The position numbers were made by a program, and so were the translations under genes. Positions 10,653 through 61,338 of a stretch of DNA of 64,000 nucleotides are shown here, piece by piece. How positions within the stretch are numbered: position 1 is the stretch's first letter; the number at the start of each line of letters is the position of its first letter. The stretch comes from a virus. A model generated the notes under the pieces. The model was given only the letters and a program-made list of their open reading frames with translations, was not told where the DNA came from and made no database searches. The DNA lies in IMG/VR virus record IMGVR_UViG_3300031669_000002, positions 96,001-160,000 of that record; one strand, given 5' to 3'.

Positions 10653-12254
10653 ATGACAACTTACGTTATATCACACACAAACGGCACAATTTATACTACT
10701 CTAGCCACGGGGGTCGTAGATACTAACTTGGGTATATCATTGCTAGGACCAAACTATGTTGGTTACGGGCAATCGATTGCCAATAACTTTATACGGTTAC
10801 TAGAAAACCAAGCAAATAATACACCTCCTACATTTCCTATAACAGGTCAACTGTGGTACGACACATCTCCATTTTCTAACGGCGGGCAAGTACTAAAGTT
10901 CTGGGACGGCACAAAGTTTAAACCAGTATCAAGCAGTGAGCTAGGAACTTCGCCGCCGCCAGCACCATTAAATGGCGATCAATGGTGGGACACCGCAAAC
11001 GATCAATTACATATTTGGAATGGCGCATCTTGGATGCTTGTGGGTCCGGGGTATAGGAACGGAGCAGGGGAAGGAATTTCTGGACTATCTAATACTCTTT
11101 TGCCGTTGGCTGACACTAATTCTCAGTTACATATTACTGGAAATCTTCAATTAAACGCAAAGACAGTTGCATTAATAAGCAATGATGCATATACTTTGTC
11201 TACTCCTATTTCGGGAATTACTTCGGTGCTTCCGGGCATTAATCTTGCACCAGGAACAGTCATTAATGGTACGTCAACTAATGCACAACAACTTGGTTCT
11301 TACCCAGCATCAAACTATGTAAGAAACGACTCATCAGGAATAATATCTGCAAGTTTAGCAGTAACAGGCAGTCTTACAATTGGAAGTACGTCGCCTACTA
11401 TAATTTACTCTGATTTATCTAATGCTCAATACATTGGCTCATCTTCTGCCATTACTCTTGTTTCTGGTAATGCTTCTATTACTGCAAACTCAAGTGCTAA
11501 CACTATTACCATTAGTAATGAACCAACAGTATCCAATTCGGTAGCAACGAAAAATTACGTAGACTCTCAAGATTCAGCAGTAATTGCTTCTGCAAAAGCA
11601 TATACAGATAGTAACGTATCTACATTACTGGGTTCTACTAATGTAAATACTATTACTAACCTGGCATTACTATCAACAGCTATTAATAATGACCTTACAT
11701 TTTCAAACAACGTATATACTGCGATTGGATTCAAATCTGATATTACTAACCCAACATTTAAAGGTAATGTAAATGTCATTGGTTCAATCTTACCAACTGC
11801 CAATATCTCAAGCGATATAGGTTCTACTGGATATAATTTCCGTCATATATATAGTCAAGCAATTAGCTCGACCTTTGCTGACTTGGCAGAAAAGTATGAT
11901 GCAGATAAACAATATGAAGCAGGTACTGTTGTGGTATTTGGTGGAGACAGTGAGGTTACCGTGAGTGCAACGTACTGTGATTCTAGAATTGCTGGCATCG
12001 TGTCAGAAAATCCAGCATATACTATGAATGATGCGTCGACTGGCATTCCAATTGCTCTAACAGGAAAAGTATTTTGTAAGTTTGTTGGTCCTGTTAAGAA
12101 GGGAGATATTATTGTTAACTCGTCGCGAGCAGGTGTTGCCACGACGCTTTCCGATAAAACACTTTGGACTCCTGGGTGCGTAATAGGCAAAAGTTTAGTA
12201 GATGATACAAATCATGGTCTGCGTAATATTATGATCTCAGTTGGACGATTTTAA
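10653..12254 (+). CDS. Tail fibre/baseplate protein with C-terminal intramolecular-chaperone (peptidase G2-like) domain
   Basis: N-terminal GPNYVGYG..NNFIRLLEN..GQLWYD module. C-terminal ADLAEKY...GTVV.FGG...GIVS.NPAY.MN...ALTGKV...VKKGD motif. Confidence 0.65.
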   Translation: MTTYVISHTNGTIYTTLATGVVDTNLGISLLGPNYVGYGQSIANNFIRLLENQANNTPPTFPITGQLWYDTSPFSNGGQVLKFWDGTKFKPVSSSELGTSPPPAPLNGDQWWDTANDQLHIWNGASWMLVGPGYRNGAGEGISGLSNTLLPLADTNSQLHITGNLQLNAKTVALISNDAYTLSTPISGITSVLPGINLAPGTVINGTSTNAQQLGSYPASNYVRNDSSGIISASLAVTGSLTIGSTSPTIIYSDLSNAQYIGSSSAITLVSGNASITANSSANTITISNEPTVSNSVATKNYVDSQDSAVIASAKAYTDSNVSTLLGSTNVNTITNLALLSTAINNDLTFSNNVYTAIGFKSDITNPTFKGNVNVIGSILPTANISSDIGSTGYNFRHIYSQAISSTFADLAEKYDADKQYEAGTVVVFGGDSEVTVSATYCDSRIAGIVSENPAYTMNDASTGIPIALTGKVFCKFVGPVKKGDIIVNSSRAGVATTLSDKTLWTPGCVIGKSLVDDTNHGLRNIMISVGRF

Positions 12255-49330: not shown

Positions 49331-50956
49331 ATGCGAATTATGACAAAACCAACAGATATTAGAAATATACTAAACACTCTATCCGAGCTCAATGAACAGA
49401 CCTTACTAGAAGTATCTCGAGGACTGTTATATAGAGCACCCGGAGACAGATTTATTCAGGGCGACCCCAAAAACCCAACCGCCACCCTAACTTTTGTGGG
49501 AGTTGATTATTTCCCCTCTAATCCAGGAGAATATGAAACATATGAAGAGATGGTCGAAGCAGGGAAACAGGCAATGCTCGACTATCCCGGCTTGGAGTTT
49601 TGCAATACGCCACAGCCAGGCTCAACCAGAGCATTCGCAATAATCACACTTGATGGACCACAACCAGGACAGCATACATATATTTGTCGATTCTTCAGAG
49701 CAATCGCAAATGATATGACAGGAGCTTGGAAGAATAACGGCATTCCAGGCGGGTGGCAATTAGCGAAAGCAAATGCACTTAAATCAAGTTATGGGTTAAA
49801 ACCAGCAGACTTGTTTGCACCCAATACAACTTTCCCTAATTCGTTGGCAGTTCTAACAGCACTAAACAAGAATGCAAAAGTAAAGGCATTGCTTCCTGGA
49901 CTACAGATGCTTCTCGGTGCTAAGATGCCAATCTTCAAAGATCAGAAAGATATGCTAGGCGCAATACAAGATGACTTAGGTGAAATAATGGCACCTGTTG
50001 CTCTGGCCCAAGGAATGATCACTGACTCAGGGGCAGAAGCAGCTAAGAAAGGATTACTAAACGGCGCAGATTGGTCAGGCGCAGAGATAAGTTTCCCTAC
50101 AGCTAAAAATGCTGGACTAGTTGATAGTTATGTTGTGGTTGATGGCATTGAAGTCGGCATTAGCAGTAAAGGAAAAAACGGCGCGAAGGCAAGTATCAAG
50201 AATGTCCAAGACGGCTTTGAGTTAGCAAGAGCAGAGCCATCAGCAGACCACGCAAGAGCACTTAAAAAATATGCTACACAAATCAAAGTAGTTGAAAAAA
50301 TTGGCGAACTTACTGCAAAGCAATTCCCGATAGAATATGGAATAGAGCTTGGTTTGATAACAGAAAAAGTCGGAAATAAGATTAACGAGTTGATCACTAC
50401 TGGTGCTAAGACATTAAATCAAATAACGATTAGTGCAGCAGAGAGAAAAGTTATTGAAGACTTGCTTGACAGAACAGATGCATCAACTACAAGTCTAAAC
50501 TATAATGTTGGATATCACGCACTGATGGTATTGGCAAGAGATGTAGCAACACAAATTAACGCAGACCCAAAGTTTGGCGAAGCATGTTTATATTTTGTGA
50601 ATATAAATCCAATCATTCAGATTTATCTGACGGCAGCCGCAGTCGGCAACGATGTGCATGTAACTAAATTGACATCGTTATATCCTCCAAATTTCCAAGG
50701 AACAGTTCTATTGGATGCAGGAAAAGGATATTATTCAAGCGGCGTTGGTGGAAAGATGGCATTTGCGTATGAACCAGATAAGAATGCAGCAGACAAAAAT
50801 GCACAGAGTCAGAAGGCACTTGCAAAGACAAATAAAATAGCAACAGCAAAAATTGATAAGATAACAAAGGGACACGTAGATATTCGTCCGCCAGGCACCG
50901 TAGCAAAAGAGCCGCGTGGAAAACGAGAAGTATCAGCACCAAGAGCGAGACGATAA
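49331..50956 (+). CDS. Hypothetical late protein, possible PD-(D/E)xK-like domain
   Basis: Late promoter at 49312; GLVDSYV..DGIEVGISSK motif. Confidence 0.55.
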   Translation: MRIMTKPTDIRNILNTLSELNEQTLLEVSRGLLYRAPGDRFIQGDPKNPTATLTFVGVDYFPSNPGEYETYEEMVEAGKQAMLDYPGLEFCNTPQPGSTRAFAIITLDGPQPGQHTYICRFFRAIANDMTGAWKNNGIPGGWQLAKANALKSSYGLKPADLFAPNTTFPNSLAVLTALNKNAKVKALLPGLQMLLGAKMPIFKDQKDMLGAIQDDLGEIMAPVALAQGMITDSGAEAAKKGLLNGADWSGAEISFPTAKNAGLVDSYVVVDGIEVGISSKGKNGAKASIKNVQDGFELARAEPSADHARALKKYATQIKVVEKIGELTAKQFPIEYGIELGLITEKVGNKINELITTGAKTLNQITISAAERKVIEDLLDRTDASTTSLNYNVGYHALMVLARDVATQINADPKFGEACLYFVNINPIIQIYLTAAAVGNDVHVTKLTSLYPPNFQGTVLLDAGKGYYSSGVGGKMAFAYEPDKNAADKNAQSQKALAKTNKIATAKIDKITKGHVDIRPPGTVAKEPRGKREVSAPRARR

Positions 50957-51249
50957 TGGACGCCCGACAAAAAGGTCTTGAGTTACTTGAGGACTGGTCT
51001 CAATATAAATCTGTGCAGTATAGCGAGAAAACATTATTTGATCGCGCAGTAAATATTGAAATTGAAAAGGATGCAGTAACACGGCTTGCTGGACTCGTTC
51101 AGCAAGCATTGATGGATGACAACTTTCCTACAGTTGAGTTAGATTATCGCAATAGAATGATGGAAACGCACCTACGCACTTTCAAAGATCAGATCACATT
51201 CGAGTTGCTCAGAAACGGATTCAAGGATCAACCCTCTCAAGCACTGTAG
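50956..51249 (+). CDS. Hypothetical protein
   Basis: TAATG coupling to the upstream gene. Confidence 0.65.
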   Translation: MDARQKGLELLEDWSQYKSVQYSEKTLFDRAVNIEIEKDAVTRLAGLVQQALMDDNFPTVELDYRNRMMETHLRTFKDQITFELLRNGFKDQPSQAL

Positions 51250-51258
51250 AGAAAGTCC

Positions 51259-51287
51259 TTGACATAGCACCTTAATGATGCTATTAT
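51259..51287 (+). promoter_or_regulatory. Sigma70 promoter of tRNA-Leu
   Basis: TTGACA-N17-TATTAT. Confidence 0.8.
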
Positions 51288-51301: not shown

Positions 51302-51420
51302 GCCTCGGTGGTGAAATTGGTAAACATAAGGGACTTCTTCGAGGGCTTGCGTAAAGCGAGTTCTCCTGAAAATCCCTCGGCCGCAAGGCCTTCCCGGTTC
51401 GAGTCCGGGTCGGGGCACCA
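51302..51420 (+). tRNA. tRNA-Leu(UAA) with 32-nt intron (51337-51368)
   Basis: Full cloverleaf with long V-arm and CCA; loop CT T^AA AA is interrupted. Confidence 0.85.
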
Positions 51421-52128: not shown

Positions 52129-52692
52129 AGTTTATCGCAGTATTGAGAACTTAGCAGCAGACGCCGAAAGGCAACGGAGCGTAAGAGGACTAAGGAAGAT
52201 ATTGCAAAGTAGCAAACTGTTACAGAACACCGTGCAGTATAAAAAATGGCACAGACCATCGTGTTAGCAAACTGAGAAAACGAAAAATATCCCACTCAGT
52301 ATAATAAAGAATAACGGAAACCGAGGAATGAAATTGGCCTGTGATGAACAGGGTGCCCTTAAAAAGGCTTAGTAAAAATCGGTTATAATTAAAGTGCCTT
52401 TACGGAGACATTTTAATTATACACATTCAATTGGAAGGATACACTAGTTGACGACAGCGATTGAGTGTGTTACAAATTTTGAAACTATGAGATAGCGTCG
52501 CTAAACGATGTCGAGTAGGTTGCTAGTGTAGTGGTTGCACACTGCTGGCGAGTAAGGTAAGATGAGGTGTTAGCGCACTGATGAGATCCTGAAAAACTGG
52601 CGGAGGCGAAGGTTCGAATCTCTTTACATTCGTTCAATTAAATTAGTTCGACTCCTATGTACTTGTGATAAATAAGTACATAGGAGAAATAA

Positions 52693-53307
52693 ATGTTTTA
52701 TTTTTTGTATCAAACAACTAATCTTTTAAACGGTAAGATCTATGTAGGTGTTCATAAGACCAATAATTTAGATGATGATTACTTAGGAACCGGCACTCTT
52801 ATTAAGCAGGCTATTAAAAAATACGGTAAACAGAATTTCAAGAGAGTTATTTTAGAAATGTTTGATACTGCCGATAGTATGTACTTGCGAGAATCACAGG
52901 TCGTGACAAAAGCTTTTACTGATAGAGAAGATGTGTATAATATCCGTGTTGGAGGTAAGGCAGGAGTTGAGGAATTTCACGATAGGTTAAGATCAGATTC
53001 AACATTTAAGAAAGAATATTCTGCTAAACTAAGTGCAGCAGCACACAGAAGAATATTACGCGGTGACAGCAGTTTACACAGGTATACAAAAGAAGATGGA
53101 CTTAACGGTTCTGCCGCTGCTCTATCAGAAGATGCTAGAAAAAAGCGCAAGAATACATTTAACGAAATAGGTCATCAACAAGGTGAAAAGAATGCCCAGT
53201 ATGGCACGAGATGGATTACAAATGAATTACAAAGTATTAAAATAAAAAAAGATGCTCTAATTCCAAAAGGATGGAGAGCAGGTCGTGTTAATGGAAATAA
53301 GAAGTAG
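52693..53307 (+). CDS. Seg-like GIY-YIG homing endonuclease
   Basis: FLYQTTNLLNGKIYVGVHKT...YLGTG and QQGEKNAQYGTRWITN module. Confidence 0.85.
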   Translation: MFYFLYQTTNLLNGKIYVGVHKTNNLDDDYLGTGTLIKQAIKKYGKQNFKRVILEMFDTADSMYLRESQVVTKAFTDREDVYNIRVGGKAGVEEFHDRLRSDSTFKKEYSAKLSAAAHRRILRGDSSLHRYTKEDGLNGSAAALSEDARKKRKNTFNEIGHQQGEKNAQYGTRWITNELQSIKIKKDALIPKGWRAGRVNGNKK

Positions 53308-53725
53308 ATTCAAAGACACTGCACCGTCATTAAATGACAGCGCCTGGGCCGCGAAAGTGTCCACCAATTTTCTTTACTACAATGTTCTGAGCCGACACTT
53401 TGAATGAAGGCCACTTCAGTAGTAATCGTGATATGAGTCAATAGAGTTACACAAGAGTAATCCAGGGTAATTACTATATTTCCAATCACAGAATTCTGTT
53501 ATCCATGAGTTGTACTAGTGAAGTTTCTTCCACGGATAATGTAATACTTGAAGGCTGGCAAGTTATGTCCAGCAGACAGTGGAGACTGGAACCGAGATAA
53601 ACGGAACGTGTATGAGCTATTTTGACCGACGTTTATAGCATAGAACTCCGATTAACAGTGCGGTAGGGTAATAAATTTTGCATCCCGACTGTCAGTGATT
53701 GACAGAGACAAAGCAAATACGATAG

Positions 53726-53910
53726 AAGCACATTCAATTAACTGTGCGGTAATGGATGTTGGGATAAGTGAGTAGGCCACTCATGTAATACAATTGAAGT
53801 TATCCAATACGGTGACAGTTCGACAGGCGAATAGCCCCTACGAGGGGAAGAAGTAGGTTAATACAAAAGGGCAACTCCTACTCACTTTGTTCAGTTAATT
53901 GAATGTGCTT
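53726..53910 (+). ncRNA. Candidate structured RNA closed by a perfect 19-bp stem
   Basis: AAGCACATTCAATTAACTG/CAGTTAATTGAATGTGCTT; internal 10-bp stem 53767-76/53877-86. Confidence 0.6.
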
Positions 53911-53911
53911 A

Positions 53912-54099
53912 GAAATACATTTACTGGGACGCTCAGTTGGTGAACGATTCCAACTAGACGAGAACGGACCGCAGCGTGTTATCCTCGGTCAAATGCGGAA
54001 AATAGGGTGGTTCCTAGAGTACTGCAATATCTCGTGACAGCATAGCGATTGACCATCGTTTACTAGTGCGAACCTAGTGCATCCCAGTAAATGTATTTC
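53912..54099 (+). ncRNA. Candidate structured RNA closed by a perfect 18-bp stem
   Basis: GAAATACATTTACTGGGA/TCCCAGTAAATGTATTTC with several internal hairpins. Confidence 0.6.
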
Positions 54100-57222: not shown

Positions 57223-57315
57223 GGTCCCGTAGTTTAAGGAAAACAAACGGCTTTATATACCGTCAAGGCTCTAGATGAGGGCAAGTCGTGGGATCGTTAC
57301 CCACCGGGACTACCA
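57223..57315 (+). tRNA. Atypical type-II tRNA, probable UAU anticodon
   Basis: 7-bp acceptor, 9-nt anticodon loop region CTTTATATA, 23-nt V region, T-loop ATCGTTA, A73, CCA. Confidence 0.7.
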
Positions 57316-61252: not shown

Positions 61253-61338
61253 GGGATCGTAGCCTAGAGGCCAGGCACCGGACTTTTAATCCGGCAATCG
61301 CAAGATAAACGTGAGTTCGATTCTCACCGGTCCTACCA
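61253..61338 (+). tRNA. tRNA with UUU anticodon and 16-nt variable arm
   Basis: Clean cloverleaf; V-arm ATC-GCAA-GAT; CCA. Confidence 0.85.

Follow-up and report, generated by a model that had tools for sequence, protein, structure and literature searches.

A conserved hairpin insert resembling a mini-intron in the anticodon of a phage tRNA-Leu(UAA) gene

In a large phage, a hairpin insert that resembles a very small intron interrupts the anticodon of a tRNA-Leu(UAA) gene. The insert is real and conserved, the phage tRNA gene that contains it is judged functional, and the case is a new variety of a phenomenon that has barely been described. We have analyzed a stretch of DNA of 64,000 nucleotides (the window), which is the segment G000:C1:96001-160000 of a 178-kb phage contig from IMG/VR with a CheckV completeness of 51%. 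In the explanation that we prefer, and in which our confidence is evenly balanced, the gene gives rise to the precursor of a functional tRNA-Leu(UAA) and the 32-nt hairpin would be a true intervening sequence, spliced by proteins. The splicing route would probably be a protein-driven one, previously undescribed in phage-infected bacteria. In textbooks, as far as we know, the tRNA introns of bacteria and phages are always of the self-splicing group I type, and protein-dependent splicing is left to archaea and eukaryotes.

The gene occupies positions 51302-51420 and is a complete type-II (class II) tRNA-Leu(UAA) gene of 119 nt including the insert. It was missed by ARAGORN in default mode and by Rfam at gathering filters. 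When ARAGORN was run in intron mode, it reported a tRNA-Leu(taa) at these positions, in which 32 nt of intron separate 'gactt' from 'aaaat', and with permissive filters the Rfam tRNA model matched 51302-51417 at full length (37.5 bits, E 9e-7; gathering score 29), placing the surplus bases in the anticodon loop. The exons, when joined in silico, form an 87-nt molecule that ARAGORN recognizes as tRNA-Leu(taa), with a junction that reads GGGACUU then AAAAUCCC in the RNA (GGGACTT then AAAATCCC in the DNA). It has the long variable arm, the AGGGA/UCCCU anticodon stem, the A73 and, once the insert is left out, the CUUAAAA loop of a class II tRNA-Leu. An earlier sequence-only reading had described a Leu cloverleaf split between U34 and A35 by 32 nt, and this was exact by sequence, by ARAGORN and by Rfam alike. 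Other placements of the junctions were considered and rejected, as they would give UCU, UCG, UUU or UAC depending on the family member, while UAA alone is common to all of them and alone suits a Leu-type body. The strong promoter of its own that had been attributed to the gene is likewise predicted (TTGACA-17-TG-TATTAT, 11 of the 12 consensus bases); it ends about 15 nt upstream of the tRNA, and in the ortholog of contig L166 a TTGACA is found at the aligned position. The features of the locus and of its relatives are collected in Table 1.

Table 1. Elements of the interrupted tRNA-Leu(UAA) locus in the window and hairpin inserts of related tRNA-Leu genes.
Feature	Window positions	Strand	Insert length (nt)	Split bond	Remarks
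Sigma-70-like promoter (predicted)	51259..51287	+			TTGACA, 17-nt spacer, TG-extended TATTAT; consensus scan 11/12
5' exon	51302..51336	+			Acceptor 5' strand, D arm, anticodon-stem 5' strand, C32 U33 U34; from ARAGORN intron mode, Rfam tRNA model and cloverleaf covariation in 9 homologs
Insert 5' tail CUUC	51337..51340	+			CU(U/A)C(G) in 6/9 family members
Insert hairpin	51341..51365	+			51341-51350 paired with 51356-51365; 5-nt loop GUAAA
Insert 3' tail CUG	51366..51368	+			3-nt tail in 7/9 family members
3' exon	51369..51420	+			A35 A36 A37 A38, anticodon-stem 3' strand, long variable arm, T arm, acceptor 3' strand, A73, encoded CCA; from ARAGORN, Rfam tRNA model and cloverleaf covariation
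Family member: window insert	51337..51368	+	32	34/35	L140 is a near-identical variant
Family members L156, L166			32 each	34/35	
Family members L153, L168			36 each	34/35	
Family member L118/L125/L135/L170			37	34/35	
Family member L120			34	34/35	
Family member L066/L136/L146			30	34/35	L066 also a locus of the loop-free scan
Family member L028/L124			20	34/35	L028 also a locus of the loop-free scan
Loop-free-scan loci L205/L206			23	33/34	
Loop-free-scan locus L207			21	31/32 or 32/33	

In the insert, a 10-bp hairpin is flanked by tails of 4 nt (5') and 3 nt (3'). The description given before, a CTTC tail, a 10-bp hairpin with a GTAAA loop and a CTG tail, was correct in every detail of sequence and fold. 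RNAfold gives the structure ....((((((((((.....))))))))))... with a dG of -14.9 kcal/mol, compared with -6.7 +/- 2.4 for 1000 shuffles (p ~0.001), and 3 of the 10 pairs are G.U. The precursor as a whole is predicted to fold as a cloverleaf with a lengthened anticodon arm. In the predicted folds of most members of the family the anticodon loop is zipped into a helix, with C32 facing A38 and the pairs U33-A37 and U34-A36, and this helix would continue with A35 opposite the first base of the insert (C or, in some members, U), then base 2 paired with the last base of the insert, and finally the hairpin, which makes an extended anticodon arm of ~20 bp. The final base can pair with base 2 in 8/9 mini-inserts. 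If the models are right, the two junctions would be on opposite strands, each one just 5' of two mutually facing bases, around a pseudo-two-fold axis and with 1-nt 5' overhangs.

Relatives were found by pattern scans of IMG/VR, of the JGI metagenomes and of one genome per prokaryote species, after which the exons were joined in silico and ARAGORN was rerun. There are nine distinct tRNA-Leu(UAA) genes, on phage and metagenome contigs, with hairpin inserts of 20-37 nt at the U34/A35 bond, and two further distinct inserts, at 33/34 and at 31/32 of tRNA-Leu(UAA). The loci are mostly within phage tRNA arrays. As the pattern behind most of the members fixed YTT...AAAA, an unbiased view of the conservation of the loop comes only from a second scan, which gave five loci and in which the D arm, anticodon stem and T arm were fixed and the loop sequence was left free. 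All five were tRNA-Leu genes, and in all of them the seven bases of the loop were complete but split by a hairpin. The five phage records with inserts that were examined are fragments of very large phages (32-210 kb, estimated to be 6-51% complete). The same pattern found no genuine interrupted tRNA-Leu in one genome each of 185,579 species, there was no near match among 50,697 phage records, and five Mimasvirus-like relatives had no interrupted Leu(UAA). For the pattern scanned, the interrupted gene appears confined to phage and metagenome contigs. We have set aside as false positives the hits L130, L173 and L186, a group of Kiritimatiellia/Lentisphaerae repeats, a 'tRNA-Cys with 26-nt intron' and, in the phage contig itself, a 'tRNA-Val(aac) with 56-nt intron'.

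Conservation in this family is deep. Every stem cell of the cloverleaf is paired in the nine interrupted genes (180/180), with nine pairs changed on both sides; the covariation was 0.579 versus 0.194 in shuffles (0/500), and sliding the register reduced pairing to 33-51%. The anticodon stem was fixed by the search patterns and is uninformative on selection. As for the inserts, all 11 distinct ones fold as hairpins better than their shuffles (Fisher p 3e-15, although the inserts are not fully independent) and they contain 11 G.U pairs. These pair only in RNA of the tRNA sense, so that selection would act on that RNA rather than on the DNA.

Contig L166 carries the syntenic ortholog, with three shared genes upstream of the tRNA: a UvsY-like one (73% identity over 84 aa), a 97-aa one (44%) and a 541-aa one (25%). 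Again in this case the insert has 32 nt, is located at the 34/35 bond and presents, around a 10-bp stem, tails of 5 nt on the 5' side (4 nt in the window) and 3 nt on the 3' side, but it starts with CUACGG, ends in A and has a different stem sequence. Actually, when both stems are compared, 4 pairs are identical, 2 have changed on one side, 4 on both sides and none is broken. A similar pattern of stem changes is found between the inserts of L153 and L168. That the layout has been kept, with no stem pair broken, next to a protein with only 25% identity excludes both a pseudogene in decay and a neutral insertion of recent date. Our comparison indicates that the tRNA body is under selection and that the insert is old and maintained, neither chance nor decay. 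The conservation of the insertion site in homologs had been set as a test of the first interpretation, and the site is 34/35 in the nine distinct genes, the syntenic L166 among them. The upstream gene pair (541 aa plus 97 aa; window 49331-51249, L166:286-2295), for which no Pfam or PHROG family was matched, is common only to these two contigs and is missing from four other intron-bearing records. In relatives with an uninterrupted tRNA-Leu, unrelated ORFs are found in place of the pair.

The UvsX of the phage is 61-67% identical to those of the Mimasvirus-like jumbo phages GAP32, CBB, XbC2, Atu_ph07 and Phosso, with genomes of 349-490 kb, and is followed by a UvsY-like gene. From the sigma-70 promoters and the T4-like genes predicted in the sequence we judged the host to be bacterial. 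The contig contains 46 tRNA genes interspersed with GIY-YIG homing-endonuclease genes. The interrupted gene is the sole decoder of UUR codons among them, in a genome that is 51% complete, and TTA is the commonest Leu codon (32%, with TTG at 17%). The missing half, approximately, of the genome could contain an intact Leu(UAA) gene. A search of the 178 kb that allowed 2 mismatches found neither a second copy of the joined arm nor a complementary splint.

In 42 viral contigs the tRNA-Leu(UAA) gene is uninterrupted, and its identity to the joined exons reaches 90%. Contigs L261, L254, L255 and L262 are syntenic relatives of the phage (UvsX 70-72% and UvsY-like 64% identical), and the tRNA cluster located just downstream includes in each of them a Leu(UAA) gene with no insert. 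The interrupted gene is equivalent to these: judging from the contigs compared, the insert is optional among homologs and the interrupted gene fills the normal Leu(UAA) slot.

It has to be considered that the transcript might never be spliced, the product being a tRNA-Leu-shaped RNA with a masked anticodon. Such an RNA could titrate anticodon nucleases or host factors that bind tRNA, as a decoy or sponge, or it could serve as a leucine carrier kept away from the ribosome. Bacterial LeuRS does not read the anticodon, and the cloverleaf, A73 and CCA that are needed for charging are conserved; besides, the A/U-rich loop would be concealed in the predicted helix, and no splicing enzyme was found in the five records (6-51% complete). 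The masked-anticodon proposal had already been made from the sequence. It fits less well because it offers no reason for seven loop bases kept intact around three insertion points. It also leaves unexplained that the gene sits in the normal Leu(UAA) slot of its relatives, and it would deprive the phage of a decoder for its commonest Leu codon. Moreover, neither the loops nor the stems of the hairpins have a common sequence across the family that could act as a binding site. We consider a masked, unspliced RNA unlikely, though with an appreciable chance of being right.

A dead or dying gene is a much less probable explanation. The insert would then be neutral or recent, for instance the scar of a homing endonuclease in a tRNA island, and the interrupted product would serve no purpose. 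It is true that GIY-YIG and HNH endonuclease genes crowd the tRNA islands, that other tRNAs of this phage have hairpins added to their variable loops, and that the insert is optional. Against this are the survival of the 32-nt layout described for L166, the pairing of the cloverleaf in every cell with compensatory changes, the covariation of the insert stems and the retention of the promoter, so we give a dead gene very little credit.

The same bond is used by true group I introns. We have found inserts of 196-213 nt at U34/A35 in 23 viral contigs of IMG/VR (L285-L307), many of them of 137-273 kb; the tRNA-Leu genes concerned reach 86% identity with that of the window. The group I model RF00028 scored 69.8 and 57.8 bits on two (L304 and L287) of six phage tRNA-Leu introns tested. 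As in cyanobacteria and plastids, the gene is homologous and the bond identical, and the claim that the insert is a coreless one at the group I site was borne out, with 32 nt and no RF00028 match. The group I introns differ from it in their size of 196-213 nt or more, their catalytic core and their ends. A terminal G and a GAG guide near the 5' end are present in all 14 distinct group I introns at U34/A35 (UUGAG in 13). The nine mini-inserts lack a core and have no consistent guide or terminal G: GAG appears in four, and the last base is A in six, U in two and G only in the window. The sequence-only reading had pointed out the GAG and terminal G of the window insert. Both are there, but they are not conserved in the relatives, L166 has neither of the two, and the window GAG is buried inside the 10-bp stem. 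The interpretation of these bases as a group I-type P1 helix and omega-G fails on these counts.

The insert cannot self-splice, as there is no catalytic core. The idea of a group I remnant that has lost its core and is trans-spliced by a ribozyme encoded elsewhere had some attraction from the shared bond and the GAG and G of the window, but RF00028 had no match on the 178-kb contig and the regions at 52.4-54.4 kb and 62.9-63.4 kb, which include the structured stretches at 53.4-54.4 and 63.0-63.3 kb proposed as possible ribozymes, matched no ribozyme or RNA family at E <= 1. We hold this remnant to be highly improbable. What persists of the proposed splicing in trans is that something other than the insert does the splicing, which is the option best supported by the relatives; the group I details do not. 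The shared bond does not imply group I chemistry: the two kinds of insert may have one ancestor, the core being deleted afterwards, or one target in the DNA. Such a deletion may have taken place, but by their sequence the ends of the insert are unlike group I ends. An ORF-poor and structured stretch is found at 53.4-54.1 kb of the window. ARAGORN called a 'tRNA-Thr(CGU)' with a 1483-nt intron at 52516-54087, with a GIY-YIG gene inside; it has mismatches in the acceptor and no group I match, and is probably spurious.

Excision of the hairpin without religation by an RNase III-like enzyme, or a signal for processing or degradation only, could be imagined from the predicted ~20-bp arm and from bacterial rRNA intervening sequences, hairpins inserted in the loops of a stable RNA and removed with no joining of the ends, but a tRNA nicked in the anticodon cannot decode, as established from colicin E5 and PrrC damage, and the predicted junctions are one step apart with 1-nt 5' overhangs instead of the 2-nt 3' overhang of RNase III, whose cut would also need religation to give a functional tRNA, and we see next to no chance for it.

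Returning to splicing by proteins, we infer that excision and religation take place, and which enzymes may perform them. With no catalytic core in the insert, proteins must cut and join. The gene would be transcribed from its own early-type promoter, and the precursor would fold as a normal cloverleaf with the anticodon loop zipped into a long irregular helix. The insert would be cut out at the two phosphates flanking the C/A35 position, on opposite strands, and the exon ends would be rejoined into the 7-nt loop CUUAAAA. An endonuclease plus an RNA ligase would do this work, the Rnl2-type ligase of the phage being a candidate. If splicing rebuilds the loop, seven intact bases split at 31/32, 33/34 or 34/35 are what should be expected. 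The varied insertion points and junction sequences of the different lineages are awkward for one sequence-specific enzyme. A more specific version, an undescribed protein-only tRNA splicing of jumbo phages in which an endonuclease specific for the zipped helix would cut one step apart and an Rnl2-type ligase would reseal, is put forward tentatively, with our opinion a little on the doubtful side. The mini-introns may persist by breaking the DNA target of homing endonucleases or group I introns that invade the 34/35 bond.

We know of no enzyme in bacteria or phages that removes such an insert. RtcB, Rnl1 and an EndA-type endonuclease (PF01974) were not found in the five phage records (6-51% complete); of the earlier suggestion of an endonuclease plus an RtcB-type ligase, the ligase lost ground here, no RtcB having been found in the portion of the genome examined. 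On the other hand, there is a 352-aa Rnl2-family RNA ligase adjoining a DnaJ gene (G000 C1:37486-38544), and a second one in G004, these being the two largest insert-bearing records. Rnl2 ligases are common in T4-like phages without interrupted tRNAs, and for this reason their presence discriminates nothing and makes them only candidates. To our knowledge, the natural role of Rnl2 in T4-like phages has not been established. The proteins common to the interrupted loci are HNH and GIY-YIG homing endonucleases, and no candidate for a dedicated splicing endonuclease adjoining the tRNA emerged from the loci compared. G005 has a weak match to AAA_33/polynucleotide kinase-like proteins.

Several known systems resemble the one described here in part. 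The tRNA introns of archaea and eukaryotes are removed by EndA/TSEN plus RtcB or Trl1 at a bulge-helix-bulge (BHB), in which two 3-nt bulges 4 bp apart are cut, canonically at position 37/38. The similarity is in the short non-catalytic insert of the anticodon loop, for whose removal an endonuclease and a ligase are presumed, and, for non-canonical archaeal introns, in the varied positions. The differences are that 37/38 is not used, EndA was not found in the five partial records, the host is judged bacterial and no BHB can be drawn. By inspection of the predicted folds, a central 4-bp helix plus outer helix at the 34/35 junctions would destroy the anticodon stem. In T4, phage enzymes also rejoin a broken anticodon loop, as is proposed here: the tRNA cut by PrrC at 33/34 is healed and sealed by Pnkp and Rnl1, and both 33/34 and 34/35 are sites of known anticodon nucleases. 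That repair, however, mends a single nick and removes no segment, and here Rnl1 was not found, only an Rnl2-type ligase. The intervening sequences of bacterial 23S and 16S rRNA are also optional loop hairpins in a stable RNA with a patchy distribution among relatives, but RNase III cuts these out, the ends are not joined again and the rRNA works in fragments, whereas a tRNA split at the anticodon would not.

The closest description that our literature search found is that of Lak megaphages, phages of Prevotella with an alternative genetic code, whose 'enigmatic' tRNA introns were presented as not reported before in phages (Devoto et al., 2019; PMC6784885). Inserts are reported there in Tyr, Phe, Gly and Thr tRNAs, with a Tyr example of 93 nt after position 37 in Table S6, and a tRNA may be encoded within the Thr insert (PMC6784885). 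As in the Lak introns so described, a phage tRNA is lengthened by an insert in the anticodon loop that has no RNA family match, is conserved between related phages and is optional among alleles (PMC6784885). Our inserts share with the 'enigmatic' introns that they are non-ribozyme, conserved and absent from some alleles. They differ from those given in that source in being plain hairpins of 20-37 nt, inside the anticodon (34/35), in tRNA-Leu(UAA) and in a T4-like, Mimasvirus-like phage (PMC6784885). The search found this single descriptive precedent (Devoto et al., 2019) and no later mechanism.

To account for conserved coreless anticodon hairpins of 20-37 nt, one would need either a splicing route that is new or a new use of the tRNA body outside decoding. 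One and the same gene appears in phage data in three states, uninterrupted, with a group I intron and with a hairpin mini-intron at the same bond, and having the three side by side makes the question directly testable. The Rnl2 ligases, orphans for a long time, may gain a natural substrate. In addition, standard bacterial tRNA finders miss such genes (as ARAGORN did here by default), so that phage tRNA repertoires and the codon-usage arguments built on them are biased.

Other unusual tRNAs were observed in these genomes. A tRNA-Arg(UCU), whose acceptor stem is perfect, has a 52-nt structured insert between U33 and U34 (G003:C1:22419-22542 and G004:C1:113934-114057), and belongs to the same phage as the 23-nt insert at 33/34 of tRNA-Leu(UAA) (the L205 record). 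At G001:C1:23423-23498 and G003:C1:10583-10657 and 11184-11258 there are tRNAs of 75-76 nt with the Leu anticodons UAA or CAA and without a long variable arm, which adjoin interrupted class II tRNA-Leu genes. Long extra hairpins of the variable region, unusual in class I tRNAs such as tRNA-Ile and tRNA-Lys, are found in the tRNA-Ile(UAU) at 57223-57315 (93 nt) and the tRNA-Lys(UUU) at 61253-61338 (86 nt) of the window; a long tRNA-Ile(UAU), of 94-96 nt, is also present in the related contigs L261, L254 and L262.

Among the bacterial repeats set aside above, a Kiritimatiellia MAG (L196:1555-1930) has a normal tRNA-Leu(UAA) followed by up to 3 tandem 96-nt copies of its 3' part, which start at the anticodon stem and have each a 30-nt double hairpin between CUU and AAAA. 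Similar repeats occur in L119, L121, L126, L147, L160, L175, L178, L183, L189 and L193; they are from bacterial genomes (Lentisphaerae, Kiritimatiellia and Verrucomicrobia) and ARAGORN did not call the copies tRNAs. Finally, CBB_tRNA7 of Pectobacterium phage CBB (KU574722.1 290373-290482; L284:474-583) is annotated as a 110-nt 'tRNA-Val(GAC)'. It scores 37.3 bits with the Rfam tRNA model and has 33 nt of surplus in the anticodon arm and a long variable arm, and no normal U33 loop could be drawn. Coming from a cultured relative, it could be a laboratory handle on the odd tRNAs of jumbo phages.
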